Source of the DNA: a virus
Taxonomy: Duplodnaviria; Caudoviricetes
Direction: 5' to 3' (one strand)
Virus record (IMG/VR): IMGVR_UViG_3300046534_000186
Location: 1 to 57,480 of that record
DNA length: 57,480 nucleotides
Positions 16,940 through 57,480 of this stretch are shown one piece after another. Position 1 is the first letter of the stretch; each line of letters starts with the position of its first letter. The position numbers and the translations under genes are program-made. The notes under the pieces were generated by a model. That model searched no databases. It was not told where the DNA came from and saw only the letters and a program-made list of their open reading frames with translations.

Positions 16940-17641
16940 ATGTTTGATTTCGGCAATAACAAGGCGGGTATAATGAATAATATGAAACTGATATACTGGT
17001 GCGGTGATGCCATTAGAGACCAAGTTACATTAGGTAAGACGTACTCTATATCTAATAAAGGAAACTTCTGTGCAGATGACGGAGGATTAAGGGATTTCGA
17101 GCAAGGACAATGGGAATATATAAATGATGAATTCATTGTTACCAATGAGGTACTAGGTTACTTTGGGAAAAAGTGTGAGGTTAGTATTGGTAATGAAGAA
17201 AATGTAGATAACCCAGATGGATTAGCAGATCAGGAGTATGAAGATAATTCTAATATCAAGTACGATGATATTCCTAACCAAACTACTGCTCAAGCAATTA
17301 AGTGGCGTTTAGCCCACCCAGAGGAAGACCAAGCATTACGCTACAATACTGGGAAGAGTCAGCTTAGTTACATGCTAGAAGCTGACGTAGCTATGAAGGG
17401 TATGTGTTCAGTGTTTGAGTTTGGTGCTAAAAAGTATGCTCGTAGCAACTGGAAGAAAGGTTTATCAGTTAATGAGATTATGGATAGTTTGCTTAGGCAC
17501 ATGACAGCCCTCGCTAACGGTGAAGTAATAGATCCAGAGTCAAGGCTGCCCCATGTAGATCACATTACTTGTAATGCTGTGTTCTTAGCAACCTTTGGTG
17601 AGCGTGTTAATAAAGGCCCAGATACAAGAGACATGCTATGA
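16940..17641 (+). CDS. dATP/dGTP diphosphohydrolase-domain (DUF5664-type) protein with an extra N-terminal domain
   Basis: RYNTGK...FGAKKY..NWKKG...DSLLRH...DPESRLPHVDH..CN. Confidence 0.75.
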   Translation: MFDFGNNKAGIMNNMKLIYWCGDAIRDQVTLGKTYSISNKGNFCADDGGLRDFEQGQWEYINDEFIVTNEVLGYFGKKCEVSIGNEENVDNPDGLADQEYEDNSNIKYDDIPNQTTAQAIKWRLAHPEEDQALRYNTGKSQLSYMLEADVAMKGMCSVFEFGAKKYARSNWKKGLSVNEIMDSLLRHMTALANGEVIDPESRLPHVDHITCNAVFLATFGERVNKGPDTRDML

Positions 17642-20888: not shown

Positions 20889-21656
20889 ATGGCAACAGCA
20901 GAGAAGAAAGAAACAAACATTAAAACTATGCGTGATGTTATCTTCATGTACTCCTCAGTAAATCGTGCTGTCGAGCAGTTAAACACAGATAAGAAGCCTC
21001 CAATCAGTGCTCCTACATCTCCTACCTTTAACCTTGAGTTTCATTCATTTGAAATCAAGATACTTATTTCTGAAGCTAGATTTAAGAAAGAGCTTAAGAA
21101 GGAGTTCAAGGCCGCCAAGAACTTGCCACATGTCAAGGAAATGGAGAAAGATGATCTACTAGAAAAGTATGATTGCTTAAAAGCTGAAGACCTAGAAGAT
21201 GAAATGATCCTAGTTAAGTTTAGCCAGACTGCGTTAGTAGGTAAAGCTAATGCTGAAGGAGTTCGTAAGCAATCGTTTCCTATCAAGCAGATTGGTATTA
21301 AAGGTAAAGTTCAAGACCTAAACGGCTTACCTATTGACCAAGACACATCCCTTGGTAATGGCACAAAGGGTCACTTTCAATTTCGCCCTGTAGATGGCCC
21401 AAACGGTCAATACCTATACCCGCAGACAGTATGTGTTACTGAGCTGATTGAGTATGTTGGTGGTGGGGCAGAAGAAGATCTCGACTCGTTAGGTCTAGAA
21501 GACCTTGACGAAGCTGACATGGAAGCTGAAGCTTTTGACCAAGAAGCTGAAGCACAAGGAATTAAGGCACAAGAAGCTGAAGATGAACGATTAGCTGACC
21601 GAATAGCAAAAGAAGAAGCTGCACCAATGGACGATGATACAGGATCAATGTTCTAG
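20889..21656 (+). CDS. Probable single-stranded DNA-binding protein (T7 gp2.5-like)
   Basis: LGNGTKG, V-x-ELIEY, long acidic tail ending in Phe. Confidence 0.7.
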   Translation: MATAEKKETNIKTMRDVIFMYSSVNRAVEQLNTDKKPPISAPTSPTFNLEFHSFEIKILISEARFKKELKKEFKAAKNLPHVKEMEKDDLLEKYDCLKAEDLEDEMILVKFSQTALVGKANAEGVRKQSFPIKQIGIKGKVQDLNGLPIDQDTSLGNGTKGHFQFRPVDGPNGQYLYPQTVCVTELIEYVGGGAEEDLDSLGLEDLDEADMEAEAFDQEAEAQGIKAQEAEDERLADRIAKEEAAPMDDDTGSMF

Positions 21657-21703: not shown

Positions 21704-21718
21704 AATTTGGAGAAGTTT

Positions 21719-22624
21719 ATGTCTTTAGAAGACTTGGGGTTAATTGACTACGAGATAGTTGATAAGACCCTACACATAGATGGCGATATAGTCATCTACC
21801 AACCTTGTTGCGTATTTAACGAAGACGATGACCAGTCTCGTAGAATGATTGCTAAGTATGTAAACAAGAAAATCGACGACTTGATGACTGCTGCTGGGTG
21901 CAACTCCTACATTATGTTTGTTACTACTAACTTTAACTTCCGTAACCATTTAGTTGACGACTACAAAGCAAACAGAAGTGATAAAGATAAGCCTGTTAAT
22001 CTGGCATGGGCAAAGCAGTGGGGTGTTAAGAACTTAAACACTCACTATGTAAAGTGGCTAGAGGCTGATGATTTGCTTGGTATTTACCAAACAGAAGAGA
22101 CAGTTCTATGGAGTCTTGACAAAGACCTCAGACAAGTCAAGGGCTACCATTTAGATGATGCTACACAGAAAATTGTTAGTATCTCTGATAATGGGTCTCT
22201 TAAAAAGGAAGTTATATACAAGCCAGATGGAAGAATTAAGAAAACTAAGTATCATTTCACAGGCACAATTGGCCTATACTTCCAAATGCTATCTGGAGAC
22301 TCAACCGACTGGATTGTAGGTTGTGGTAAGAGAAACCCAAGGCCAGAAGGTAAGACTGTAAGAGCAGGAATAGGACAAGGCAAAGCCTACGACATCTTAA
22401 TGAAAGCTGGCAGCATAGAAGCAGGTCTGTTGGCAGTAGCTGACGAATATTGTAAATTACATAAGGGCAACTGGCAGAAAGAGTTAGAAACTCAAGCCAA
22501 CCTACTATTTATGGTTCGAGAAATCGATGGCAATATTATTAAAAGATGGACATTCGACAAGCGTGACGAGTATATGAACATTGTCACAGGAGAAATTACT
22601 GATGGCAATAGTAAGACTACTTAA
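21719..22624 (+). CDS. 5'-3' exonuclease (T7 gp6/FEN-like)
   Basis: IDGD, NFR..YKANR, EADD, DKDLRQ, GDSTD. Confidence 0.9.
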   Translation: MSLEDLGLIDYEIVDKTLHIDGDIVIYQPCCVFNEDDDQSRRMIAKYVNKKIDDLMTAAGCNSYIMFVTTNFNFRNHLVDDYKANRSDKDKPVNLAWAKQWGVKNLNTHYVKWLEADDLLGIYQTEETVLWSLDKDLRQVKGYHLDDATQKIVSISDNGSLKKEVIYKPDGRIKKTKYHFTGTIGLYFQMLSGDSTDWIVGCGKRNPRPEGKTVRAGIGQGKAYDILMKAGSIEAGLLAVADEYCKLHKGNWQKELETQANLLFMVREIDGNIIKRWTFDKRDEYMNIVTGEITDGNSKTT

Positions 22625-25575: not shown

Positions 25576-27417
25576 ATGATTCAACTTGATGGCGGCGTTA
25601 TATTGCCTGATGGAAAAGGTAAAGGGTTTGCCAAACCTGATGGGATTAGTCCTAACAAGTGGCAAACCATGAAACCTGAGATGTGGGAGAGGGCGTACTT
25701 ACATTGCCTGTATTCTCTACCAATACATTTCGACCTACCACTACACTCAGTAGTACCTCGGCTAGCCAAGAAAATGCTAGAAGCATCAGACCCTTTCAAT
25801 GTAGCCTTAAGGTTTATGGGAGAGATGGAGATAGCTGGCTATGTAGAGTTTGAGAGAGGTATGGATGAGAGAATAGTCCAACCAACTAAAAAGTTTCTAA
25901 GTCTGGATCTAGATTGTGAAAGAGCGCCTACCTCGGCCATAACCTTTCCTAAGATGATCGGGGAAGGAATACCTAGGTCGCCAATTAGAGGTGGGGTAAG
26001 GAGTGCTAAGAATGATGAGGTTGCTGACATAACTTCAGAGATTGCTAGCCAAGAGTTTGAAGTAAACCAGCACATGCTCGACCTAACAACTGAGTTCCCT
26101 CCTCAGTTTGATAAAACTTCTTCAGCTTATATGTATAAGAGAGCTATGAAGTCTTCTAAAACCTTAGGAAGCAGGAGGTTTAGATTTCCTTATTTCCTAG
26201 ATAGTAGATCAAGGACTTACACTGATACTACTTGCGGAATAACTCCTCAGGGAGCTGACCATGAGAAGGCTTTGGTAATACCTACCTACGCTGAGAAGCT
26301 TACACCTTCAGGATTGATAGCACTAATAGAAGCTGCTAATGGCTACTCCGAACTAGACTTTACTCAAGAAGACATGTGTAGGCATATCAATGATCCCAAA
26401 GGCTACCACCATGAATGGTCTAAGTCTGATAAGCCATACTCGTACCTTGCATGTGCAGCCCTCGTATACAGACACTCAAAAGATCCTAATGAGCCATTGC
26501 CAGCATTCAAACCTTTAGATGGTCGATGCTCAGGGCTACAACATTGGTCTGCTGTAGTTCGCTCAAACGCGATTACACGCCATCTGGGGATGCATATAGA
26601 TGAGGCTGACTTGGACATCTATGAGAAGGTTGCGGCTGACTGGAGAGAAACGCTTGAACCTGAGTGGCAGTATTTGGCTACTAGAAAAGCGGCCAAGATT
26701 CCTGTTATGACATGGGGATATAATGCTACTATGATGACTTCGATGGAGCATATAGGAAAACTATATGGGGCAAAGTCTAAATGGGATGATAATATCCAAG
26801 CGTATGTCACTGATGGTAAGGGACTAGAGAGGGGTGTCACGAGCAAGTTCGGGGCTCAGATATACAGACAGTTGCAAGATACTTTAGGCCCACTGCAAGG
26901 CGCTGTGAGCTGGGTGAGTGATTGTGCAGTACTAATATCTAAGATAGGTAATGTAGAAATACGATGGCCTACTCCTGATGGTTTTACCTGTATGCAACGT
27001 AAGGTCAAAGGAGAGACTAAAGATCTTGCTTGCACTCTATCAGATGACAGCAGGTTTCAATTAGACATACTAGACTTCTCCAAAGATACTCCCAACACTG
27101 GTAAGCACAGGTCAGCAATAGCACCTAACATAATCCATTCGCTAGACGCTACACATCTAAGGATGGTGGCTAGAAGGTTGAAGGAGTTAGGTTTGCCTAT
27201 GATATTTATACATGACTCATTCGCTACACATTGTAATCATGAACAAGCATTGTATGATATTATTGTTGATACCTTTATAGAACTGTACAGCATGGATTAC
27301 TTGCAAGACCTTAAGAAGTATTGGGAAGAACTATATGGGGTCGAGTTGGATGATCCTCCAGAGCTGGGCGAATGGAAGCCCGAATCTATAAGAGGTCTTA
27401 AGCGATTCTTTCTATGA
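25576..27417 (+). CDS. Single-subunit RNA polymerase 2 (T7 superfamily, 613 aa)
   Basis: FPYFLDSRSRTY..PQG, motif A DGRCSGLQH, motif B RKAAKIPVMTWGY, APNIIHSLDA, motif C IHDSF; AGGAGG RBS. Confidence 0.95.
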   Translation: MIQLDGGVILPDGKGKGFAKPDGISPNKWQTMKPEMWERAYLHCLYSLPIHFDLPLHSVVPRLAKKMLEASDPFNVALRFMGEMEIAGYVEFERGMDERIVQPTKKFLSLDLDCERAPTSAITFPKMIGEGIPRSPIRGGVRSAKNDEVADITSEIASQEFEVNQHMLDLTTEFPPQFDKTSSAYMYKRAMKSSKTLGSRRFRFPYFLDSRSRTYTDTTCGITPQGADHEKALVIPTYAEKLTPSGLIALIEAANGYSELDFTQEDMCRHINDPKGYHHEWSKSDKPYSYLACAALVYRHSKDPNEPLPAFKPLDGRCSGLQHWSAVVRSNAITRHLGMHIDEADLDIYEKVAADWRETLEPEWQYLATRKAAKIPVMTWGYNATMMTSMEHIGKLYGAKSKWDDNIQAYVTDGKGLERGVTSKFGAQIYRQLQDTLGPLQGAVSWVSDCAVLISKIGNVEIRWPTPDGFTCMQRKVKGETKDLACTLSDDSRFQLDILDFSKDTPNTGKHRSAIAPNIIHSLDATHLRMVARRLKELGLPMIFIHDSFATHCNHEQALYDIIVDTFIELYSMDYLQDLKKYWEELYGVELDDPPELGEWKPESIRGLKRFFL

Positions 27418-31210: not shown

Positions 31211-32662
31211 ATGGGATTATTTAGGGCAGTAAATTTATTACAATCAGTTGAAGGTGGGTATACTACAGGAAGCCAATTAGAGTCTATACTAAGCTCATCA
31301 CCAGCAAGAGAGGCTGAGTTTGGTACTCTGTTAAGTACTAGGCATAACTCAAGAAGAATGGCAGGTAATAGCCTTACTATGAATGCTGTTAGTGAAAGTG
31401 CTATAGCTATTAAAGTAGTCTTTGAAAAGACAACTTCATTTAATTACAGACCAATTGAAGCAATTGCAAAACACCAAGTAGCAATGATAAGCACTAGTAC
31501 ACACTTAGAATCACTAGAGAAAGTAATAGATAATGACGTAGCTTGGTCTTTGTACAATAGCTCTAGCTACTACGAGACCAACCAGATAAATGTTCTGTGT
31601 ACGTTGATAGGGCTAGACCCTATTAACTATGCAACTATAGCTTCCTTGATTCAGGATTCATCAGCTATGGGAGACATATCTACTAATGTAAGAGCAATGA
31701 AGGCATTAGTAGTGAGTAGTACAGCTATGAGTGTTGTAGTGATAACGTCAGCGGCTATGAATGATATTGCTTCCGACATAAATGCTATGAATATTGTTGC
31801 AAACAATGATGATGCTGTAAAGCTAATTGCAAACTCTCAAACAGCTTTAAATGCTATTACACCAGAAGCAAGGACAATAGTGTTAGGAATCCCGTCTGCT
31901 TTAGCTATACTGGCTAATAATAGTGGTGCTTGGGAATTTATACTAAGCACCTCTACCACACTAGATACTACTATCTACCCACTACTAATATCTCTTGCTT
32001 CACTTGACTCAGATACTTACCCAACTGTGCATGATATATTTGCTGATACTACTGCTAGTTTTGCAGTTGCAAACAGTAAGCCTGCTATGATGGCGATAGT
32101 TTCAGAAGCTGATTCAGTAAAATATACTGGTCAGTCAGTAATGGATAAAATAATCTTAAGTGATAACCTATCCACTGTGTTAGGATCATTGGTAGCTATA
32201 ACAGAACTAATACCTGACGAGGGTATTATGGGATCTTTGATAACCAATACTCAAGCCTTTCCAATACTACTAACTAGCTCAGACGCGAAAGCAGCTATAT
32301 TTACGTCACCGACATTATTTGGTGTTATGATGGGTGATAGTGCTAGTCTTGCGTCTATACAGTCTACTTCACAGTCTGCAACAGTAGTTAATGATGCGCT
32401 TCAGGGTGTGTACAAGACAGTAGGAGTGCCAGGAAATATTATCATCTTGACAGCAGTTATGGGATCAATTGTTGCAACCACTTTGGTTAACAGATTTCAA
32501 GGTGACACACAAGCTATTTCTGAGTTTGATATTCCGGGTACAAGCTTATCGTCAGGCCCAATAGATGTAAACCTACCGTTTACAAATGCTACATGGGATA
32601 TCCTTTCTATAGCAGCTACAGCAGCAGGAAATGTAACCATCACTTACGTAGACTTTAATTAG
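31211..32662 (+). CDS. Ala/Ser-rich helical-repeat protein, probably virion-associated
   Basis: Repeated S..AM...A motifs and an internal duplication. Confidence 0.6.
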   Translation: MGLFRAVNLLQSVEGGYTTGSQLESILSSSPAREAEFGTLLSTRHNSRRMAGNSLTMNAVSESAIAIKVVFEKTTSFNYRPIEAIAKHQVAMISTSTHLESLEKVIDNDVAWSLYNSSSYYETNQINVLCTLIGLDPINYATIASLIQDSSAMGDISTNVRAMKALVVSSTAMSVVVITSAAMNDIASDINAMNIVANNDDAVKLIANSQTALNAITPEARTIVLGIPSALAILANNSGAWEFILSTSTTLDTTIYPLLISLASLDSDTYPTVHDIFADTTASFAVANSKPAMMAIVSEADSVKYTGQSVMDKIILSDNLSTVLGSLVAITELIPDEGIMGSLITNTQAFPILLTSSDAKAAIFTSPTLFGVMMGDSASLASIQSTSQSATVVNDALQGVYKTVGVPGNIIILTAVMGSIVATTLVNRFQGDTQAISEFDIPGTSLSSGPIDVNLPFTNATWDILSIAATAAGNVTITYVDFN

Positions 32663-38995: not shown

Positions 38996-39543
38996 GTACT
39001 AACAACGTAATACTTCATGAGTCTGATGTACAAATAATACAGACTTTCATAGATACTATGGTAGGTATACCTAAATACTCCTACCCTGCGCGGCAGAACA
39101 GTGCGCCTAAACCTAAAGGGGACTTTGCGCATATTAGACTGTTAGAAGAGTACCAAGTAGGAATACCTCACACAAAAGTTTTTGCTTCAGATGAAAATAC
39201 TACCACTTACAGGATCTACAGCCCAACAAGGTTGAGGTTCCGTATAGGTCTTGTTGATACTAATGGTCTAGCTTCTGCAAAAATAATGCATAGCTGGACT
39301 ACTGAAGTCATGAGAACTCTAATGATTTCCTCTAAGGTTGGATTTATTAAGTGTGATCCTCTATCAAATGAAAGTGCAAAACTAGAAAAAGAATGGGAGA
39401 CTCGTCAAGGGTTCTCCTTAGAAGTATATAAGACACGCGTATTCGAGGAAGTAGTGAACAACATTACATCTTTATCAATATCAGGAAGTTTTATTTCTGG
39501 TGATAGTACTTACCTTCTCGACTTCGACATTAACAATATCTAA
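38992..39543 (+). CDS. Tail terminator / neck protein
   Basis: Directly before the sheath; QNxxPxP motif. Confidence 0.6.
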   Translation: MSTNNVILHESDVQIIQTFIDTMVGIPKYSYPARQNSAPKPKGDFAHIRLLEEYQVGIPHTKVFASDENTTTYRIYSPTRLRFRIGLVDTNGLASAKIMHSWTTEVMRTLMISSKVGFIKCDPLSNESAKLEKEWETRQGFSLEVYKTRVFEEVVNNITSLSISGSFISGDSTYLLDFDINNI

Positions 39544-39556
39544 CAAAGGAACAATT

Positions 39557-41041
39557 ATGGCGATTGAAATTACTGAATTCACCAATGTCTCTATATCAGT
39601 CTCGCCTGTTGGTGTAGCTGGTGGAAACTTTGGCATCTTAGGATTCCTTACTGTAAACACAGACCTAGCGGTTGCTGGTAAAAGTATTACTCCTGCTGAA
39701 CGAGCTAGGTCTTACACAAGTCTAGCTACTGTAGGTGGCGACTGGCAAGCTGGCTCTGAAGTGTATAAAGCTGCAAATGCTTTCTACGCGCAAACCCCTA
39801 CACCAACAGACTTTACTGTACTTATGTCTTTCGAGACTGCACAGAAAGCTAGCCTGATTGGTGGTGGTACTCTTACTGCTATTGAAATGATAGCTGCCGA
39901 AGGTGCTTGGAGCGATCAAGATTTTACTATGACTATTGATGGAGTAGATGTAATTATCAATGATCTAGCAATATCTGGTGGAGATGCTACTTTTGATGGC
40001 ATTGCTACTGAGCTACAGAGTGCTATCGTAGCAGCAGGCGCGACAGCAACAGTCACGCACAATGGTTATCAGTTTATAGTTACTGGAAACACCTCAGGTT
40101 CTTCTGGGGCAATTACCTTTGCATCAAGTACTGACGCAGCACTAGCCCTTGGCTTAACTGCTTCTTCAGCTAAACTAAGCCAAGGCTTAGACGTTGAGAC
40201 TGCTGTTGAAGGTTTGGCTGCTAATTTAACAGCAGGCAAGGAATGGATTGGATTGGTAACACACCGTAAATTCCGTGACTACACAGGCGGGGCATTTGGC
40301 TCTGGCCAATCTGCGGAAGACATTGGTGTGTGGGCTGAAGGTGCTAAGAAGATATTTTGCAACACCACCAACGACTTAACTACCCTTACCTCTGGTGCGA
40401 CAAACACAGCCAGCGCTATGAAAGGTAGAACTTTGAGATTTTCTCTTACTACCTTTAGCCGTGACGTATTATCTTATCCAAGTGCATCTATCTTTGGTAG
40501 AGCAGCTTCTGTAAACTTTTCAGCTATTGGTAGCACCATTACCCTTAACTTGAAGCAGATGCCTACCGTTGCTTCTGAAGATTTGACTCCTTCTGAATAT
40601 GCTAACATGAAGTCTTACTTCTGTTCAGCCGTAGTACAGATAGGTAAGTCTGTCAATGCCTTTACTGACTCTCGCATGGCCTCCGGTTCATGGCTTGATA
40701 CTACTCATGGTTTGATGTGGTTAGAGAATCGTGCTGAAGTTGATATGTTTAACTTGCTTTATGTGAACAACACTAAGGTTCCTTATACTCAGGTTGGACT
40801 GAATACTGCTATTGGCACTCTTAGACGTAGCTTAGAGGCTGCCGTTCGTAATGGACTGGCAGGCCCAGGCTACCTACCCGATGGTACGTACCTTGCCGAT
40901 GGCTTCTCTATTTCGGCTGTATCTTTAGCGGACACTCCGTCTAGTGATAAAGGTAATCGACTGTACGCTGGCCTTTCTTTTAAGATGGTTGGTGCTGGTG
41001 CATTGCATGAAATTACCGTTTCTGGTAGCTTCTCCGAGTAA
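39557..41041 (+). CDS. Tail sheath protein (DUF3383-like); start revised from 39500
   Basis: AAGGA RBS; Y.AA..F..Q.P.P, TL.LKQ, KVPYT..G, AVRNG, AGALH. Confidence 0.88.
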   Translation: MAIEITEFTNVSISVSPVGVAGGNFGILGFLTVNTDLAVAGKSITPAERARSYTSLATVGGDWQAGSEVYKAANAFYAQTPTPTDFTVLMSFETAQKASLIGGGTLTAIEMIAAEGAWSDQDFTMTIDGVDVIINDLAISGGDATFDGIATELQSAIVAAGATATVTHNGYQFIVTGNTSGSSGAITFASSTDAALALGLTASSAKLSQGLDVETAVEGLAANLTAGKEWIGLVTHRKFRDYTGGAFGSGQSAEDIGVWAEGAKKIFCNTTNDLTTLTSGATNTASAMKGRTLRFSLTTFSRDVLSYPSASIFGRAASVNFSAIGSTITLNLKQMPTVASEDLTPSEYANMKSYFCSAVVQIGKSVNAFTDSRMASGSWLDTTHGLMWLENRAEVDMFNLLYVNNTKVPYTQVGLNTAIGTLRRSLEAAVRNGLAGPGYLPDGTYLADGFSISAVSLADTPSSDKGNRLYAGLSFKMVGAGALHEITVSGSFSE

Positions 41042-41648: not shown

Positions 41649-42023
41649 TTGAAAGAAAGCTACAAAGGAAACCTGTCCGATGGACGACCAATTTATATTC
41701 CAAGCTGGCCTGCTACAGTTCAGTTTGAAAACTTAACCCAAGTATGTAAATACCTTGGACAAGATAACGTAGTTGAAATATCAGCCCTAAATGTACCAGC
41801 CGCTATGGTTGCCGTCATGGGTTCTGATGATTATAAGGCTAGCACAGACCTAATGATGCACTTCATTAAGCAAGCTAGGTTAGACGGTGAGAAGCTCACT
41901 GAAAAGAATATAGAAGATATGGAAATGGATATCTTAATAGAACTATTTACTCATGTTATGTACTCGCAGTTCAACTCTTTTTTCGTATTAGGTTTAGCAA
42001 AGGTTCCTTACCAGCCCAAGTAG
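41649..42023 (+). CDS. Tail assembly chaperone (G-like)
   Basis: Between tube and tape measure; TTG start with GGAG RBS; slippery site near the 3' end. Confidence 0.8.
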   Translation: MKESYKGNLSDGRPIYIPSWPATVQFENLTQVCKYLGQDNVVEISALNVPAAMVAVMGSDDYKASTDLMMHFIKQARLDGEKLTEKNIEDMEMDILIELFTHVMYSQFNSFFVLGLAKVPYQPK

Positions 42024-42241
42024 GCTCAGGTGACTCAAGTATACCTTTAGACTACAGTGCTATATACCCAGAGCTAAATGGTTACTTGATAAAACCCTTG
42101 CTTGTAAGTCCTCCCATGTGCGTTTTGAGAGAAATACAAGATGGTACATACAGCCTATATGACATAGAGATGATGCACCAGATAATTGAAATTAGACACC
42201 ACCAAGAGAGGCCACCACCTCAACCACCCACCCCACACTAA
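41978..42241 (+). CDS. -1 frameshift extension of the tail chaperone (GT-like)
   Basis: In-frame T-TTT-TTC at 41978-41984; the -1 frame is open for 85 codons (RIRFSKG...LREIQDGTYSLYDIEMMH...) to TAA at 42239-41. Confidence 0.8.
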   Translation, partial: FFRIRFSKGSLPAQVGSGDSSIPLDYSAIYPELNGYLIKPLLVSPPMCVLREIQDGTYSLYDIEMMHQIIEIRHHQERPPPQPPTPH

Positions 42242-42255
42242 GCCTAGGAGTTCCT

Positions 42256-45200
42256 ATGGATGACGATGTAGCAGATCAGACAGAGAGAGAATACTCTGGT
42301 GAAAACGTAGAACAAGACTACACTGGAGGAACTCAAGCTTCATGGAATGAAAGAGGTCTAAGTAATGAAGACTTTGATAACTCTATATCTGGTCAAATGG
42401 ATCTTAGGGAAGAAGGAGATGATCTTGCCGATGCCATTCTTGGTTTAAGTAATGTAGAAGCTAAAGATTCCTTTATAGGAAATGCTGACCTAATAACCTC
42501 AGAGACTAATGAGTTAGAAAGATTCTCTCACATGAGCGAGAGTGTGAAGAAGGCAGCAGTTGAAGTTTTAGAAGCACAAACACAACACTTGTCAGGAAAG
42601 GCTTTGGTAGTTGCTAAAGCATCCTATGAGGCTGCCTTGGGCAAGAGTTCTGACCAATTTATTAAGGGACTAAATGTACAAGCAACCTCCCCTGTAACAA
42701 CATTAGACCCTACATCTTTCTCTATGAAGGCTGTGATGAAAGATGGCAAGATAGTATACAGGGCCGAGCAAAATAGGATTAAGCCATACAGAGACTCCTT
42801 CATAGCACAATCATTAAGTATTGGTTATGATACTGAAGGAAAATTTGACCCAATAGAGTTGGATAGTGGTTATAGTATTACAGGTAATGTAGAGCAAGAT
42901 ATAGGGGAAAACGAAAAGGAAGAACTTATAGAGGTCTTTAACCAAACAAAGTTAATAAACCAACCAAACATAATAGGATCTTTTGAGCCAAAAGCAAGTA
43001 AGCAAGATGTAATGGTTGCTAGGTCTATGCTAGAATCAGTAGAGTCCTACGAGGCTAGGGGGCCAGGATCTCAAGTATCAGGTAACTATGACTCAAATAT
43101 AAAAGTTGGAGTCGGTGGCAGCATAGAAGGGTTTTATGATGATGCTTTCGATAAGAATAGTGAGGAAGACAAGAAACTTAATAGAGGCTCTAAAGATAAA
43201 AGAGTAAAAGCTGATCTAGATTTTGCTTTAGCTATGGCTAACATTAGTGACCTTGCCGAACTGTATATAGACCCTAGAGCAAAAGGTGGGGAGATGTATG
43301 GTAAGCAGAAGGCAGCAGTAGAACTTGCGCTAATAAAAAGGTTTATTGATGGTCAAATGTCTGACGAAGCTAAGTCTATTCTACCACTTCCAAATGAGAC
43401 TGGAGTAACTGGACTAAGAGTCACTAGAGGATCTATAGGAGGACAACAAGGAACACCATTTACTCGGCTGGAGTTTGGCTTAGAAGCAAATAAAAGAGGT
43501 TGGACTCCTGAAGGTAAGTACCTAAAAGAAGGTGAAGAGAATCCTTATTGGAGATACTTAGGTACTGTTGGACAAAGCCTATTTCCTAAGAAGTTTGTTA
43601 AAGATGAATTTGGTGAAGAAGATGTTGAGGCTAATGCACTTAACACCAGAACCAGAAAGTATGAAGAGCAAGTGGCTTTAGACAAAGCTAGGGCTACTCG
43701 TAAGATACTTCTTGAGCAAATGCCAACCTTAAGAGATGAAACTGCTGGACAGTCCAGAACTCCAGGGTTTGATAAACCTTATGGAGATCAAGAAAATATT
43801 CAGCACATACTAGATAAAGTATTTGGTTCAGGTGAAGACTTAAAAGAGTTTACAGGTGACAATGGTTCAGAAATAAAAGAAGCCATTGAAGCAGGTAATG
43901 AAGCAATAGAGAGAGAACTTAACCTACCTATGAAAGATTTTGTAGGTCCAAGCAATTTGGAAGGTATAGAACAACGTACACCTGCATGGTACAAGGCTAG
44001 GGAAAACTTAATCACAGCATCAAAACTTACTAGTACTAGTGGTCAGTTACTAGACGCCGAAGGTATGGCTGCTCAGTTAGCTTTAGAAAAGTATGCTAAG
44101 ACCGACCCAGAATTAGCCAAAGAAATAGAGTTCATTGGTAACTCCCATGTAATAGATGGACAAAAGGGTGAGAAGCTAGCCCTTAAAGAATTCTTAATGA
44201 TGCAGAAGACTGAGGGAGATGAGCTTACTCATACTGAAGTAGGTTTGTTGCAGGCTGAAGAGATGCCAGGATTTGGTGCTTCTCCAGATGGTAGGCTTAG
44301 AGATCTTGAAGGTAATAACAGGGGCTTACTAGAACTAAAGTACTTAACTTCTGGCTCTATGAAAGGTGCCTTAAAGAAGTATACTCCACAGATGCAATTG
44401 CAGATGGCTGTTACTGGAGAAAAAGAAACAAACTTCTTTGCTCTTGATAAGTATACAGGAGAGTCTATACATGAAGTAGTGAAAGCTGACCCAGATATGC
44501 AAGCTGAAATACTTGAAGTAGGAAAACAAGCTTTAGAGATGTCAAAAACCTTAACTAAAGAGGAGGCTATAGAAATGAAGAAACAAACAAAAGCACAAAG
44601 AAGAAAGTCTAACCTTGAAGAAAGGAATGAGACAGGTAAAGGTCAAGAAAGTTCCTACGAAGCTAAAGATTATACAGACAATGAAGCCACTTCTTTTAAT
44701 GCAAATGAAGTAAACGAATCAAAAGAAAAGACTTTTAAGCGAGATAAGGCTAAGGCTTTAAATAGAGATTTTGAATCTATAGCTGCTATGAAAGAATTTG
44801 ATCAGTCTATTACCGAAGCTTCGGAAGCTGCTAAGAAGGAAGCTGCTAATAATAAAGCAGCAGCTAGAGCAACCAAGGACAGAGAAAATGCAGACAGGGA
44901 CGCAGCCAAAGCTACCCAGAAACTAAGGGATGCAGCAATAGGCGCAGCTAAGAGCCTGTTAGGTATAGTACTAAGTGCTAAAGATTCTGCTATGGACACT
45001 ATAAACTTAGCTCGTAGAAATGGATTTGATGAGGATGCAGTAAGAGGTCAAGAGTTTGCTATGGTTGCTGAAGGTGGAATACCTTTAAACGTAGCTAAAA
45101 GCGCAATAGATAATGCTGGGTCAACTCTAAGAAAGCTAAGGACTGGATCTACAGCAGGAGCTGAGCTGAGAAGGATGAACACTCAGTATGGGTCTACTCC

Positions 45201-46137
45201 AGAGATTTTAGATACTCTTGGCCCAATGAAATCTAGAAATGAGATTATTGCTATGGGGCAAGATTTCCTTCCCTTTGTGCAGGGAGAAATTAATAAGTTT
45301 CCTGTGGGAGATACGAACAGGGCTATTGTAGCAGAAGTCTATGGACAAAATTCTCAGTTAGCTGCTAGCACAGCCACTATGGAAGAAATGCTTATACCTA
45401 GAGCTATGAATGTTAAAGGAAATGAAGAGTCTAACCAAGGATACCAAAGTGTTAAGATGTATCTACAGGGTAAGGAAGAGAATCTAGTGGGGGAAGGTGG
45501 TAAAGCAGGAGGTGCAACCACTTACACTGCGGAGTACGCTAGGGATAGAGCCGACTTACTAGTGTGGATAAAGGAGAATCCTGTGATAGCCGCTTCCGCT
45601 GTTGTAGGGGGTGGACTAACTTTAGCTGCATACAACTTAGCTATGGGTAACAGCCCCGCAAAACCGCTACCTGAAGGTGGGGCGGGTGAGATGTTATCAA
45701 ACCGTGCCAAACTTAACTCAGTAGATGGACCTGTCTATGCTCCTGATCATGACATAAGCCAAGTAGGTGCAGTCACAGGATCGATGGCTAACTTCAATAT
45801 AGGTAAGTCTGGAGTCAAGTTACCCGAAAATAAAAACTCAGGAACTGGAGGTGAAGTGTCAGGAGTAAATAGCTTCTGGAATTCTGAAAATAATAACAGT
45901 AAGTTGCCTAGTGGTTTAAACTCTCCTCAGGATGGTAGTATTCCACTGTCTGACCTCGTGACACCTACAGCATTGCCTAACACTAACATTATTAAAGATA
46001 AGCAACCAATATCTATATCTACTGTAAATGAAAATAATGTTGATATACAGATCTTTAATGACAAAGATAGTACTGAAGTTAGAGCTACAGTTGGTGAAGA
46101 TGAATATGTAAATAGGGAGAACGGTAATTCAACTTAA
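42256..46137 (+). CDS. Tape-measure-position protein with an internal YqaJ/lambda-exonuclease domain
   Basis: Follows the G/GT chaperone; A/K-rich helical C-terminal part; EQRTxxW..AR...ITAS, GASPDG, ELK, Y..QMQ.QM at about 43966-44520. Confidence 0.8.
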   Translation: MDDDVADQTEREYSGENVEQDYTGGTQASWNERGLSNEDFDNSISGQMDLREEGDDLADAILGLSNVEAKDSFIGNADLITSETNELERFSHMSESVKKAAVEVLEAQTQHLSGKALVVAKASYEAALGKSSDQFIKGLNVQATSPVTTLDPTSFSMKAVMKDGKIVYRAEQNRIKPYRDSFIAQSLSIGYDTEGKFDPIELDSGYSITGNVEQDIGENEKEELIEVFNQTKLINQPNIIGSFEPKASKQDVMVARSMLESVESYEARGPGSQVSGNYDSNIKVGVGGSIEGFYDDAFDKNSEEDKKLNRGSKDKRVKADLDFALAMANISDLAELYIDPRAKGGEMYGKQKAAVELALIKRFIDGQMSDEAKSILPLPNETGVTGLRVTRGSIGGQQGTPFTRLEFGLEANKRGWTPEGKYLKEGEENPYWRYLGTVGQSLFPKKFVKDEFGEEDVEANALNTRTRKYEEQVALDKARATRKILLEQMPTLRDETAGQSRTPGFDKPYGDQENIQHILDKVFGSGEDLKEFTGDNGSEIKEAIEAGNEAIERELNLPMKDFVGPSNLEGIEQRTPAWYKARENLITASKLTSTSGQLLDAEGMAAQLALEKYAKTDPELAKEIEFIGNSHVIDGQKGEKLALKEFLMMQKTEGDELTHTEVGLLQAEEMPGFGASPDGRLRDLEGNNRGLLELKYLTSGSMKGALKKYTPQMQLQMAVTGEKETNFFALDKYTGESIHEVVKADPDMQAEILEVGKQALEMSKTLTKEEAIEMKKQTKAQRRKSNLEERNETGKGQESSYEAKDYTDNEATSFNANEVNESKEKTFKRDKAKALNRDFESIAAMKEFDQSITEASEAAKKEAANNKAAARATKDRENADRDAAKATQKLRDAAIGAAKSLLGIVLSAKDSAMDTINLARRNGFDEDAVRGQEFAMVAEGGIPLNVAKSAIDNAGSTLRKLRTGSTAGAELRRMNTQYGSTPEILDTLGPMKSRNEIIAMGQDFLPFVQGEINKFPVGDTNRAIVAEVYGQNSQLAASTATMEEMLIPRAMNVKGNEESNQGYQSVKMYLQGKEENLVGEGGKAGGATTYTAEYARDRADLLVWIKENPVIAASAVVGGGLTLAAYNLAMGNSPAKPLPEGGAGEMLSNRAKLNSVDGPVYAPDHDISQVGAVTGSMANFNIGKSGVKLPENKNSGTGGEVSGVNSFWNSENNNSKLPSGLNSPQDGSIPLSDLVTPTALPNTNIIKDKQPISISTVNENNVDIQIFNDKDSTEVRATVGEDEYVNRENGNST

Positions 46138-47086
46138 ACAAAAAGTATTTCTGGAAGTTTGGGATGCTCAAGAAGGAGGCAATCTAATACTAGATGCCTC
46201 TGGATTGCGTGTTGACTTTGATGTGAGGCATATACCTGATTTTAGCAGGGCTGCCTTTACTATCTATAACCTTAACAATGAAACTATAACAAGCCTTATG
46301 AGTGAAGGACTATACGTTACTCTAAAGGTTCAATTGCATGATGGAAATATTCAGCTATTAGCTAATAAGTTTTATATAAACAATGCAGTAGATGAGCTTG
46401 TTCTACCTAACCGTATTACAACTCTTTACTGTTTTGACAGGCTACGCTCTACATTTCTTGAAAGACAAGTGTCTATACCAGTAGGGAACTACCCTAACCT
46501 TAAAGACATGATTGACTCTCTGCTAGTCAGGGCTGGGTATAACTCTTCTAGGGATGATGAATTTATAAGCTTTCCTGCTGGTAGGGTATACCAACCCTCT
46601 AAGAGGTCAACTAGATTGCTAAATGGTAGTGTGCAGCAGTGCCTTAGGAGGCTTGAGAAAGAATATAAATTCTACACATACACTAATAATGGTAGGCTTT
46701 TATTTAAGCACTTTCCTGATTTAGATACTGTTAGTAAAACTTCTCTACCTGACTCTCCTATAATAAAGCTTAGTACTCGCTCAATGAGGTCTACTCCTAA
46801 GATAGGTATAGCCTCTTGCACAATACATAGCAATCTAAATGGAGATATAACCACATCGTCAGTATTAGACTTATCTCAACTATTAACTATAGGTGTAGAT
46901 GAAAGTAAAGAAACTCTACTAGTAGTCGAGAACTACTTAAAGAACTTTTCTAATAATACTATATACCAAGCTTTTGCTATTACTCACACAGGGAGTAACT
47001 ATACAGCAGACTGGTCAACCCGTATAACAGGTCTATCACCAACACGAGGTAAGAGAATGCCTACGGGTGTTAGGTGGATGAACTAA
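46127..47086 (+). CDS. Baseplate hub protein (track start 46205; frame open upstream, possible ATT start at 46127)
   Basis: LRVDFDV...A.FTIYNL N-terminal pattern; synteny. Confidence 0.7.
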   Translation: MQLKQKVFLEVWDAQEGGNLILDASGLRVDFDVRHIPDFSRAAFTIYNLNNETITSLMSEGLYVTLKVQLHDGNIQLLANKFYINNAVDELVLPNRITTLYCFDRLRSTFLERQVSIPVGNYPNLKDMIDSLLVRAGYNSSRDDEFISFPAGRVYQPSKRSTRLLNGSVQQCLRRLEKEYKFYTYTNNGRLLFKHFPDLDTVSKTSLPDSPIIKLSTRSMRSTPKIGIASCTIHSNLNGDITTSSVLDLSQLLTIGVDESKETLLVVENYLKNFSNNTIYQAFAITHTGSNYTADWSTRITGLSPTRGKRMPTGVRWMN

Positions 47087-51210: not shown

Positions 51211-52092
51211 ATGACTGATCAGATTAACTTACACTTACTATGGGCTAGTGATGGTGGAACGACACCTGTGACTAGCACTAAGTACGAGGGAGGTTGGATA
51301 TCAGAGATACCAACATTCCAAAACTTCAACTACATGATTCAGGGACTAGACCAAAACATCCTGCACTTTGCAGAGTCCAGCTCATTTGAATGGCAAACAG
51401 AAATATCTTATAAAGTAGGTGCTAAGGTAGTAAGCTTACTAGGTATTGAATTTACTGCTAGAGTAGCAAGTACAGGCACTGATCCAGATACTGATGTATC
51501 AAACTCAACTTGGGTTCATGGTTGGATAATCGGGGACAGTGCAAGTACGATCTTTGAGTCTGATGGATTCAAGGTATCTTTACCTGTTAGGGACAGCTCA
51601 CTATACACTGGAGTTGACCAAACTATACTAAACAAAAACCCTATGTTAGAGCTAAGAACTACTGGAGCTACTAATAACTGGGCAGTGGGGAACACAGATG
51701 GAGAGGTTGTTGTACATAACCTAGGCCAAGATGGTGTAGACAGCCGTACCTTAGTAAAGGGAGGTGGTAATACACATAGATTGTTTCATGAGGGACACTT
51801 ACCAACAGCAGCAGAAGTAGTTGGGTCACTTGTAGATGCTCCTTCAGATGGTTCATCCTATGGGCGAGAATCAGGTAATTGGGTCAAGGTAGCAACAGCA
51901 GTAGTTAGCGATTCCCCGCCTCCAGTAAGCACTGGTGAAGGGTTATGGTTCAACCTAGCAGATGGGCAACTTTACATAGATATTAACGATGGAGATAGTA
52001 CTCAATGGGTTATAGCTAACCCTCCTCTTGTGCTAGAGCCACCTGAGGCTGCTGCCATAACACAAGCATCCATTTTAGCTTACATAGATTAG
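51211..52092 (+). CDS. Tail fibre protein (proximal)
   Basis: WA..G...K...GW..E.P..Q.FN N-terminus, DAPSDG..YGR, LWFN..DG.LY. Confidence 0.8.
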   Translation: MTDQINLHLLWASDGGTTPVTSTKYEGGWISEIPTFQNFNYMIQGLDQNILHFAESSSFEWQTEISYKVGAKVVSLLGIEFTARVASTGTDPDTDVSNSTWVHGWIIGDSASTIFESDGFKVSLPVRDSSLYTGVDQTILNKNPMLELRTTGATNNWAVGNTDGEVVVHNLGQDGVDSRTLVKGGGNTHRLFHEGHLPTAAEVVGSLVDAPSDGSSYGRESGNWVKVATAVVSDSPPPVSTGEGLWFNLADGQLYIDINDGDSTQWVIANPPLVLEPPEAAAITQASILAYID

Positions 52093-55682: not shown

Positions 55683-55766
55683 GAGAACTAACTAATGACT
55701 AACTCAACTAACTCAACTAACCTAACTAACTCATCTACTAACACTAACACTAACGAGGAAGCAATC

Positions 55767-57480
55767 ATGACCGAAGCAAACAGAGAAGCATTCACAATCG
55801 AATCCAATCGCAGATCAGAATTCGTGAGCAAACTAACAAGCACACTTTACAAGAACGGACAAAGCACTATGGATAGCCTTGTCATAGCCACAGCGATGCT
55901 AGGGAGTATCGACAAGCTTGGCTTAGTAAGCATTGACAAGTGGGTTAAGAACGTGAATAAGTTCATACACAGGACAGGAGAGCAAGGGACTAGTATCATA
56001 GCATCCTCAGTGGATGGTACAACAACCCATAGAGACTTCGTGATACCCACATGGTTCGATACTGTGGTACATGCTGAGTTGATCACTAGGGATGGTGAGG
56101 TAGGTGAGAAGCTAATGAAGATGATTCAGAAGCCTGATAAGGCATATCCAGCACTAGCTGTGGATGGTGTGACTAGAAAGCATCCAATGATACCTAGCAA
56201 CTCAACGTACAAGTTAGGTAGTAGAGCATCAAACTTAGCAAAAGCTGGATTAGAGGTGCAGGAAGATACACCTTACACATCGAACAACTTCATGGTATCT
56301 TTAGCAGAAGGTGTTGGTAAGCATATAGAGTTAGATGATAGATATGTCATTGATGGCTCTAGGTTAATGATTAGCGAAGGCAACTTACCTAGAGTTAGTG
56401 AGCACAAGGCAGATCACAGGATCAGGACATATCAAAGTGATTGTCATGGTCCACAGTTTGCAGCTTCAGACATGAGTAGGTCATTCATGGACTTGTATGG
56501 GGTAAGCACAGACTATAGTGCAAAGAAAGTGGTAGCTGTCCTACGAGATGAGATGCTAGACATGATAACTGGCAAGACCATGAAAGATCTTGACCATGCT
56601 ATACAGATGCTTAGGAACTCAGGTGGCTTAGTTATGTTTATAGTTGAGCAACTAACCTTGAAGGGTCACGACAATGCAGACACATTGCCTGAAGAGTGTG
56701 TTGATGACTACATAGTAAGTAAAGTATGGAGCTTTGTCAAGGCTAACAGGTATCTGATGGCTATAGAGGCTGGTAAGAAGCCTTACATAGGTATGGCCTT
56801 TGGTGTAGATGCCAAGTGCTCAGGCCCACAGTTAGGCTCTATCATGACTGGAGACATTAAGTTAGCTGAAGCGTGTGGATTTGGTAGCAAGAGAGCTGAA
56901 CGTGATGCTTATGAGCTAGCAATTGAGATATGTGAGAAACGTGGAATATCTGGACTATCTAGGAAGGTTATTAAAACAGCATACATGGGTATATTCTACG
57001 GTCAAGCTTACATGACCTTCTGTGATATTAGCAGTTACGGAGCAAAGCCTGGACAACATAACCCTAGGCTCTTGAAGGTGCTAAAAGGTATCAAGGTAGA
57101 TGGAGTGAGTGATGCGCAAAAGCTTGAGGAACAAGCTAAGATCTTCCACGCAGCTATCGAATCCTCATTCGGTAACATGTCTGCTCTAAGGAAAGAGATT
57201 AAGCTGGCTCATTACCACTACGAGCAATCTGACAGTGGTATGCCGATCAAGGTATTTGATACTACAAAGCCTACTATGTACAGTATGCCTGATGGATCAT
57301 TCGTTGCTATGGATTATAAGGAGAAAGTAGATATACATGGTGAGAAGATACAGCAAGCTAAGCTAGCACCCGATGTCACTGTGGATATAGCAGGAGTTGG
57401 TACTCTGAAGTTTGAAAGGTTGAGTTTTAAGACAACTACTCCTAGTCTAGATAACCATGCTAGAACAGGGTTTGTCAACT
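55767..57480 (+). CDS. Single-subunit RNA polymerase 1, N-terminal and central part (695 aa when joined to 6..551)
   Basis: GAGG RBS; frame read by hand with no stop; DHRIRTY, motif A DAKCSGPQ (56808), motif B RKVIKTAYMGIFYG (56961); alternative in-frame ATG at 55695. Confidence 0.93.
   Translation, partial: MTEANREAFTIESNRRSEFVSKLTSTLYKNGQSTMDSLVIATAMLGSIDKLGLVSIDKWVKNVNKFIHRTGEQGTSIIASSVDGTTTHRDFVIPTWFDTVVHAELITRDGEVGEKLMKMIQKPDKAYPALAVDGVTRKHPMIPSNSTYKLGSRASNLAKAGLEVQEDTPYTSNNFMVSLAEGVGKHIELDDRYVIDGSRLMISEGNLPRVSEHKADHRIRTYQSDCHGPQFAASDMSRSFMDLYGVSTDYSAKKVVAVLRDEMLDMITGKTMKDLDHAIQMLRNSGGLVMFIVEQLTLKGHDNADTLPEECVDDYIVSKVWSFVKANRYLMAIEAGKKPYIGMAFGVDAKCSGPQLGSIMTGDIKLAEACGFGSKRAERDAYELAIEICEKRGISGLSRKVIKTAYMGIFYGQAYMTFCDISSYGAKPGQHNPRLLKVLKGIKVDGVSDAQKLEEQAKIFHAAIESSFGNMSALRKEIKLAHYHYEQSDSGMPIKVFDTTKPTMYSMPDGSFVAMDYKEKVDIHGEKIQQAKLAPDVTVDIAGVGTLKFERLSFKTTTPSLDNHARTGFVN
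57304..57480. repeat. Terminal direct overlap, right copy
   Basis: Matches 1-177 with one mismatch. Confidence 0.97.

Follow-up and report, generated by a model that had tools for sequence, protein, structure and literature searches.

Introduction

Lambda exonuclease (structures 1avq, 3slp and 3sm4) and LHK-Exo of Laribacter hongkongensis (3syy) are free-standing nucleases of ~200-230 amino acids (aa), and their genes usually lie beside the gene of a single-strand annealing protein. The stretch of DNA analysed here (the window, which is the whole 57,480-bp virus record IMGVR_UViG_3300046534_000186) encodes a domain with the same fold and motif set. Unlike these enzymes, the domain lies within a structural protein of 1293 aa (P0001), which is flanked by tail genes and occupies the slot of the tail tape measure. 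The finding is a form of cargo-carrying tape measure that occurs throughout the lineage, and its cargo is a DNA exonuclease.

Tape measures with enzymatic domains are known from other phages. T5 pb2 and the tape measure of mycobacteriophage TM4 reportedly contain transglycosylase or peptidase domains or Rpf-like motifs. Proteins of this type are said to be rulers that double as enzyme vehicles; their cargo acts on peptidoglycan, whereas the cargo of P0001 is a DNA exonuclease. The view that peptidoglycan hydrolases are the usual cargo is carried over from the original prediction as general background, and P0001 itself has no SLT transglycosylase domain. T4 gp2, which is said to be a low-copy virion protein for injected ends, is proposed as a functional analogue. 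It is unrelated in sequence, lies outside the tape measure and shields DNA ends from RecBCD by binding, not by resection. Polyvalent proteins are multidomain proteins for which PMC5512222 proposes co-delivery with the DNA and an early role; they combine anti-defence, replication and peptidase domains in a single delivered chain. None of their hallmark domains was found in the P0001 family by Pfam scans, and the accessible part of PMC5512222 does not cover this architecture.

Nuclease domain

The sequence and the structural model both predict that the domain is a genuine lambda-exonuclease-type nuclease with an intact catalytic core. The original prediction had placed a YqaJ/lambda-exonuclease domain at 43966-44520 (residues 571-755), within the open reading frame (ORF) at 42256-46137. 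This span is in the frame of the ORF and every motif named for it was found; the span was borne out as far as it went, and the true limits are slightly wider, at residues ~567-779. The QRTPAW...R...ITAS motif is formed by Q573, T575, W578, R582, T587 and S589. It is followed by G..GE (G635, G638 and E639), GASPDG (with D678), ELK (with E693 and K695) and Y..Q.Q.QM (Y709, Q712, Q714 and Q716). The roles of D678, E693 and K695 in catalysis are presumably those of their lambda exonuclease counterparts, and R582 aligns to an arginine that binds the 5' phosphate in that enzyme.

A search with PF09588 confirmed the assignment, with a match at residues 578-722 (E-value 1.1e-9, 39.2 bits, cut-off 22) that spans model positions 2-149 of 150. 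When the record was searched in six frames the YqaJ match scored 44.9 bits and was the only one in the genome. A phmmer search of the sequences in the PDB returned LHK-Exo (3syy, E-value 3e-8), in which GFGASPDG, L.E.K and QMQ.QM are aligned motif for motif.

An AlphaFold2 model of residues 300-800 was built from a 12-row alignment and has a mean predicted local distance difference test (pLDDT) score of 74.8. The nuclease part of this model has a pLDDT of ~85-95. The best Foldseek matches are lambda exonuclease and LHK-Exo, with E-values of 1e-7 to 2e-6 and a target-normalised TM-score of up to 0.70. VIA-align gave a Z score of 17.5 to 3syy (173 residues, root-mean-square deviation of 3.1 A) and of 15.5 to lambda exonuclease 3slp (182 residues). 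A homotrimer prediction with three copies of residues 560-790 gave scores of 0.00 and 0.04 against a mark of 0.42, which neither supports nor opposes a ring like that of lambda exonuclease. The neighbours of the exonuclease are tail genes and the Gp2.5-like gene is 20 kb away, which differs from the two-component arrangement (lambda Red or RecET type) of an exonuclease gene beside an annealase gene.

Tape-measure slot

The original prediction also assigned the protein to the tape-measure position, and this assignment stands, as the ORF lies between a frameshifting chaperone and the baseplate hub. The gene order is tail sheath, tail tube, chaperone, the 1293-aa ORF, hub, Dit-like protein, spike and baseplate J (Table 1). 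The stop codon of the -1 frame of the chaperone is 14 nucleotides upstream of the ATG of the 1293-aa ORF (42256). The two-product frameshifting chaperone arrangement is said, after work by Xu et al. in 2004, to precede tape measure genes. The in-register heptamer and the -1 extension were present in 14 of 15 loci, namely the window, 8/9 IMG/VR loci and 5/5 cultured Chaseviridae, and were absent in one IMG/VR locus (L007). All other ORFs of the tail module are of 423 aa or less. Because of the gene position, the frameshift signal and the lack of an alternative ORF, the 1293-aa ORF is accepted as encoding the putative tape measure of a Chaseviridae-like marine myovirus.

The length of the protein was compared with that of the tail at 0.15 nm per residue. 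By this measure the 452 residues that follow the nuclease would correspond to ~68 nm, and the 1080 residues outside of the nuclease to ~162 nm. The family has tails of 116-166 nm; 162 nm is in this range and 68 nm is below it, which points to a tube that holds the regions flanking the nuclease on either side, and to storage of the domain in an extended form.

Conservation in environmental viruses

A word-indexed search found 11 metagenomic homologues of 1128-1466 aa, and YqaJ is present in 12/12 members including the query. The residues that are invariant in the 12-member alignment are Q573, T575, W578, R582, T587, S589, G672-R680, L691-K695, Q712, Q714 and Q716. The three predicted catalytic residues D678, E693 and K695 are thus unchanged in 12/12. 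The nuclease is also the best-conserved region of the protein, with a mean pairwise identity of 0.55 compared to 0.27-0.45 elsewhere. These alignments indicate that the active site of the nuclease is under selection. No Pfam family other than YqaJ was above its gathering cut-off in the 12 members, and 11 families were sub-threshold. The strongest of these is DUF6861, which was matched in 1/12 members (E-value 1e-5, 25.5 bits compared to a cut-off of 28).

A scan of IMG/VR kept 80 loci, of which 20 share the tail genes of the window. A YqaJ segment lies between the chaperone and the hub in all 12 IMG/VR loci that have both flanks. The protein is a complete single ORF of 1137-1723 aa in 13/20 loci, and the other seven are cut by contig ends. 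When 1.84 billion representatives were searched with a profile, 110 proteins had matches at E ≤ 1e-30. The length of 92 of these is 1044-2017 aa, and a crude regular expression found D...E-x-K in 85/92. The original prediction had considered a chimeric assembly as a possible refutation; the ORF is no such chimera, as the same contiguous ORF occurs in 13 complete independent metagenomic loci and in five cultured phage genomes. It also implied that the fusion was a one-off, which did not hold, as the fusion is conserved in Chaseviridae and their marine relatives.

The longer versions of the protein include two of 1723 aa, in L024 (4099-9270) and L025 (3523-8694), and lengths of 1924 and 2017 aa occur among the representatives (P0077 and P0085). 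Proteins of 443-623 aa that begin with M and match only the C-terminal half were considered as tape measures without the nuclease. This was rejected as unproven because cuts at contig ends yield fragments of the same size in 7/20 IMG/VR loci. A query for genomic context with the single protein P0105 found no relative.

Conservation in cultured Chaseviridae

The protein in the same slot has a YqaJ match in 5/5 cultured Chaseviridae, and 4/5 are above the Pfam cut-off of 22 bits. The matches score 43.9 bits in phiEcoM-GJ1 gp62 (1239 aa), 39.7 bits in 4HA13 gp67 (1204 aa), 32.9 bits in ZPAH14 gp34 (1205 aa) and 23.6 bits in SppYZU05 gp09 (1251 aa). The match in VPs20 gp24 (1276 aa) scores 19.6 bits, which is below the cut-off. 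These proteins are like P0001 in their slot after the frameshifting chaperone, in their similar length, in the YqaJ domain in the middle of the protein and in the D...E-x-K residues. BLASTP of P0001 against VPs20 gp24 and phiEcoM-GJ1 gp62 found no similarity outside of the nuclease core. The D, E-x-K and Q-x-Q residues are kept in 12/12 aligned sequences that include the five cultured Chaseviridae, and the equivalents of W578 and R582 are kept in these five phages in an alignment judged by eye. On the evidence of these genomes, the YqaJ-tape measure fusion appears to be a family-wide trait of Chaseviridae and their marine relatives.

The proteins of phiEcoM-GJ1 and 4HA13 have an extra C-terminal SLT transglycosylase domain, which is not in the window protein. 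The usual peptidoglycan-hydrolase cargo of the original prediction therefore does occur in the E. coli phage branch, where it is in addition to the nuclease.

The outgroup Pakpunavirus bmx-p3, which has the same sheath family, encodes a 788-aa TMP_3 tape measure without YqaJ in the equivalent slot. The other outgroup protein, Iodobacter phage PhiPLPE gp55, is uncertain in its role and had no Pfam match, and the locus of Salmonella phage SPLA11 is cut by the end of its record and was left out. Therefore, the absence of the fusion outside of the clade rests on one clear outgroup.

The slot protein of PP952070.1, Staphylococcus phage Pel53 (host Staphylococcus hyicus), is 87.7% identical to that of phiEcoM-GJ1 and the phage has a Chaseviridae sheath. 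The Staphylococcus host label of this phage looks doubtful.

Relationship to Chaseviridae

The 57.5-kb window is the complete genome of a marine relative of Chaseviridae, and the record is complete according to CheckV. Chaseviridae are myoviruses with a T7-like RNA polymerase. The family's ICTV profile puts tail length at 116-166 nm and describes the genomes as linear and non-permuted, with ~3-kb terminal repeats (PMC12842549). The sheath of the window is 33-39% identical to Chaseviridae sheaths. The genes common to the window and Chaseviridae include those for an RNA polymerase, PolA, a primase, a ribonucleotide reductase, a ligase and a FEN nuclease. Chaseviridae are delimited by a myovirus tail module, a single-subunit RNA polymerase, a genome of ~52-56 kb and a core-gene phylogeny; the window is 57.5 kb and "Chaseviridae-like" is the furthest naming claimed. 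No DNA near-identical to the window was found in the phage collection. A tblastn search of phages with the whole 1293-aa protein gave only free-standing exonucleases in 17 records, with 26-30% identity over the nuclease part; therefore, the link to Chaseviridae was made through the sheath and not through this protein.

Virion data and annotations

PMC9699118 reports liquid chromatography-tandem mass spectrometry of CsCl-purified 4HA13 virions, in which the "tail tape measure protein" ranks second of the twelve top proteins. Coverage is at least 50% for 15 proteins. The proteome entry was matched to gp67 only by the consecutive numbering of the sheath, tube and tape measure.

Database annotators have already noticed the domain. 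The RefSeq entry of ZPAH14 gp34 is "exonuclease" with a yqaJ note, and the SKA49 homologue is a "putative endonuclease". Other GenBank labels of homologues include tail fiber, tape measure, tail tube initiator and virion structural protein, and the homologue is named tail fiber in the ST32 paper. The homologue at L006 10536-14153 was considered together with the inconsistently labelled public records. No paper that discusses a YqaJ domain in a tape measure was found, including the accessible part of PMC12629253; the original papers on phiEcoM-GJ1 and Erwinia phage Y2 were outside the scope of this search. A term search of PMC6989608 found no mention of tape measure, exonuclease, YqaJ, transglycosylase or gp62. 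The conserved fusion is thus present but unremarked in cultured E. coli phages, and the inconsistent public annotations of this gene could be unified.

Proposed function

The architecture suggests that an enzyme which processes DNA ends is injected by the virus together with the genome. The preferred explanation is that the tape measure delivers an exonuclease which resects the repeated ends of the incoming genome, and the probability of this explanation as a whole is put at roughly 0.45. Tape measures line the lumen of the tail and are expelled ahead of the DNA on contraction. The protein would be built into the tail lumen with the nuclease domain stored in an extended form, and contraction of the sheath would expel it ahead of the DNA. 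The Gly/Ala-rich hydrophobic segment in the C-terminal region may then engage the membrane, and the nuclease would refold beside the first-entering end of the DNA and resect the 5' strand of the linear genome ends. Since Chaseviridae genomes are terminally redundant, with ~3-kb repeats at both ends, resection would bare complementary 3' tails. These tails could anneal through the Gp2.5-like protein or host factors to form circles or concatemers; the Gp2.5-like protein is a possible partner in this step. Long 3' tails are poorly degraded by RecBCD, and the resected ends would be poor substrates for nucleases of this type. A small number of enzyme copies per virion would suit a target with two ends.

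A version of this explanation treats the tape measure as a packaged "recombination starter". Its nuclease would ride on or beside the leading genome end in the tail, enter the cell together with it and immediately turn the ~3-kb terminal repeats into 3' tails, which would bring about circularisation or concatemers together with RecBCD resistance before phage genes are expressed. This version is considered doubtful.

Several observations weigh against the preferred explanation. We infer both the delivery into the cell and the activity at entry. P0001 has no match to the curated tape-measure families (TMP_N, TMP_3 and PhageMin_Tail in Pfam, and those in PHROG), and TMP_N was found in only 1/12 relatives, with an E-value of 0.012 and 16.5 bits, which is below the cut-off of 27. 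Tape measures are highly divergent in sequence, and the missing match lowers the tape-measure claim only a little. Three folded domains of ~23 kDa would not obviously fit side by side in the lumen of the tail tube; storage would need an extended or unfolded form. A FEN-type exonuclease and an annealing protein are already expressed from the replication module. T7-like phages with terminal repeats are not known to need resection at entry. No terminal repeat is visible in the record of the window, and its ends join in frame. The joined ends (55695-57480 and 1-551) form one 778-aa ORF with a single terminal stop, which is expected if the assembler collapsed a repeat or if the record represents a closed circle. 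The domains embedded in the proteins of the marine clade, Cleopatravirinae and Nefertitivirinae are not united in one clade in the free tree.

The tree of embedded and free-standing domains had 46 rows, and P0130 and P0135, which match the N-terminal region, were dropped for the approximately unbiased (AU) test with 44 rows. A single clade was not rejected by this test (p 0.28). Both trees are quick trees with long branches, and one ancestral fusion is possible.

A conserved exonuclease cargo would widen what tails deliver beyond cell-wall-degrading domains. If the recombination-starter version is true, it would give the first example of a tape-measure cargo with DNA instead of the cell wall as its substrate, and a new route for linear phage genomes to survive entry. 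A conserved exonuclease cargo would also bear on how linear, terminally redundant genomes are protected and readied for replication in the first minutes. The hypothesis is directly testable because the same architecture is present in cultured E. coli phages. One of the phages with this architecture is phage flopper, for which the listed host is K-12 MG1655.

Alternative explanations

The nuclease may instead work in the producing cell, where the late-expressed precursor or a fragment released from it would resect DNA ends for recombination-dependent replication, for concatemer formation or for the breakdown of host DNA, and only the C-terminal or a processed part of the protein would then be in the tail. 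In favour of this alternative, the domain is the only lambda-exonuclease-type enzyme of the genome. With helices, a hydrophobic segment and a sheet, the C-terminal 452 residues look like a minimal tape measure, and the one relative with a weak TMP_N match has it just after the nuclease. However, the ~68 nm expected of these residues is far under the tail length of the family, and the N-terminal parts are probably in the tube. The low-confidence linkers at residues 503-566 and 780-841 flank the domain and could be cleavage sites, but Pfam scans of P0001 and the 12 family members detected no protease or autoproteolytic domain in the protein. A covalent fusion that is kept in 13/13 complete loci and 5/5 cultured phages is also hard to explain if the nuclease acts apart from the tail. 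This alternative is considered unlikely.

Another alternative shares the delivery at entry with the preferred explanation and differs in the target. The nuclease would act against host or defence nucleic acids as a counter-defence or take-over effector, much like the domains of injected polyvalent proteins. It might attack linear plasmids, the ends of prophages, chromosomal DNA with breaks or the DNA parts of defence systems. The position in an ejected protein fits this as well as it fits the preferred explanation, and the SLT domain as a second cargo in the E. coli branch indicates that the protein does carry effectors. Enzymes of the lambda-exonuclease type require a duplex end, however, which an intact circular chromosome does not have, and no endonuclease domain is fused to the nuclease. 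Few copies are expected per virion. The domain is also invariant whether the hosts are E. coli, Aeromonas, Shewanella, Vibrio or marine bacteria, which fits variable defences less well than a target that stays the same, such as the ends of the phage genome itself. That multidomain proteins can be delivered along with the DNA is an established idea, but neither a tape measure nor YqaJ appears in the accessible part of the polyvalent-protein paper (PMC5512222). This target is thus rather improbable.

The third alternative is that the domain is kept mainly for DNA-end binding or for structure, so that it could hold the leading genome end in the tail or neck, or oligomerise the tape measure, and catalysis would be dispensable. 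Lambda exonuclease is said to encircle DNA ends and to bind the 5' phosphate with an arginine, and the aligned R582 is invariant. A virion protein that caps injected DNA ends has a reported precedent in T4 gp2. Pure binding does not predict that D678, E693 and K695 are kept in 12/12 across lineages that cannot be aligned by BLAST, and a role without catalysis is accordingly given little credence.

An artefact, whether through chimeric assembly, a mis-called ORF or a protein other than a tape measure, could be argued from the missing tape-measure family match and from the tail fiber, tail tube initiator and virion structural protein labels in GenBank, but it is very improbable given the contiguous ORF in 13 complete loci and five finished phage genomes, the frameshifting chaperone directly upstream in 14/15 loci, the separate tail-fibre-like genes downstream (51211-52092) and the TMP_3 tape measure in the equivalent slot of Pakpunavirus bmx-p3.

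Other regions of the protein

The coordinates of the features are given in Table 1. The original prediction had described a ~570-aa acidic N-terminal region. This is correct for residues 1-100 (net charge -19) and 201-300 (net charge -11), and the charge is ~0 in 101-200 and 301-500. The N-terminal 570 residues are also not uniform, as they hold a conserved folded helical domain at residues 312-499. Among the relatives, only the closest one (P0002) has counterparts of residues ~150-245.

The 312-499 domain is upstream of the nuclease in all 12 marine family members and has invariant columns. The best structural match of this domain, modelled within residues 300-800, has a Z score of 6.2, which is the noise level for helical folds. 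A search of PDB sequences with residues 312-505 gave 0 matches at E ≤ 10, and a look-up of residues 300-505 in the ESM Atlas gave no usable match. The domain appears to be specific to the marine clade and could be a partner or regulator of the nuclease.

The helical, tape-measure-like C-terminal region of the original prediction is seen in part. The region is mostly helical from residue 842 to ~1130; the model is poor, with a mean pLDDT of 51.9 and values of 78-90 only at residues ~911-1050. A search of PDB sequences with residues 841-1293 gave 0 matches at E ≤ 10. A hydrophobic peak comparable to that of the Gly/Ala-rich segment lies between residues 989 and 1162 in 11/11 homologues, and weak Gly-zipper Pfam matches were found in 2/12 family members. 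The small C-terminal beta-sheet is present in 12/12 members and is weakly conserved, with a mean pairwise identity of 0.29 and no invariant column.

Table 1. Features of the 1293-aa protein, its tail-module neighbours and the related replication genes in the window
Feature	Coordinates	Strand	Evidence
Large ORF in the tape-measure slot, 1293 aa (P0001)	42256..46137	+	Sole ORF between chaperone and hub
Predicted YqaJ/lambda-exonuclease (PD-(D/E)xK) domain, residues 567-779	43954..44592	+	Pfam, PDB sequence match, fold matches
Putative catalytic core: D678 (44287-44289), E693 (44332-44334), K695 (44338-44340)	44287..44340	+	Translation
Residues 1-300, variable, partly acidic N-terminal region	42256..43155	+	Mean pairwise identity 0.33
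Residues 312-499, conserved helical domain with PLPNETGVTG, RDE.AGQ and PYGDQ	43189..43752	+	pLDDT ~80-90, mean pairwise identity 0.45
Residues 503-566, low-confidence linker	43762..43953	+	pLDDT < 50 at model residues 204-267
Residues 842-1130, predicted helical: long helix 842-922, then helical bundle	44779..45645	+	AlphaFold2 secondary structure
Residues 1099-1131, Gly/Ala-rich hydrophobic segment, candidate membrane-inserting glycine zipper	45550..45648	+	Kyte-Doolittle peak 1.58 at residue 1110
Residues 1253-1289, small predicted C-terminal beta-sheet	46012..46122	+	Low-confidence model strands; block NN..V...V..D.T.T.V.VNGD
Tail sheath, 513 aa, upstream context	39500..41041	+	Pfam DUF3383 E 2.1e-54; PHROG tail sheath E 1.4e-85
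Tail tube, 163 aa	41081..41572	+	Pfam KPP10_Orf10 25.2 bits; phrog_280 E 8.5e-23
Tail assembly chaperone, 124 aa	41649..42023	+	Pfam Phage_TAC_15 E 3.6e-6; phrog_11820
Slippery heptamer T TTT TTC of the chaperone gene, in -1 frameshift register	41978..41984	+	Sequence read
-1 frame chaperone extension, G/GT-like long form	41985..42241	+	-1 frame open from 41903 to 42241
Baseplate hub	46205..47086	+	phrog_196 E 8.5e-19
Gp2.5-like single-stranded DNA-binding/annealing protein	20889..21656	+	phrog_112 E 1e-5
FEN/T7 gp6-like 5'-3' exonuclease, separate and non-structural	21707..22624	+	Pfam 5_3_exonuc_N E 1.9e-6, 28.1 bits, under cut-off 34.3

Other genes of the record

No Pfam match to the RecT, ERF or Rad52 families was found across the whole record. 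Both halves of the 778-aa ORF formed by joining the record ends have weak matches to phage RNA polymerase families, so the record is cut inside one polymerase-like gene. A 613-aa ORF at 25576-27417, just upstream of the terminase, has strong matches to single-subunit RNA polymerase (Pfam RNA_pol E-value 2e-46, phrog_414 E-value 1e-71). With two such ORFs, of 778 and 613 aa, the phage therefore seems to have two RNA-polymerase-like genes.

The 233-aa ORF at 16940-17641 has the N-terminal domain of a dATP/dGTP diphosphohydrolase (PF18909, E-value 1e-22). This domain goes with 2-aminoadenine genomes in other phages. Modified bases are not reported for Chaseviridae (PMC12842549). The 483-aa ORF at 31211-32662 has weak matches to tail-fibre PHROGs and is located between the terminase and the portal, which is an odd site for a fibre gene.

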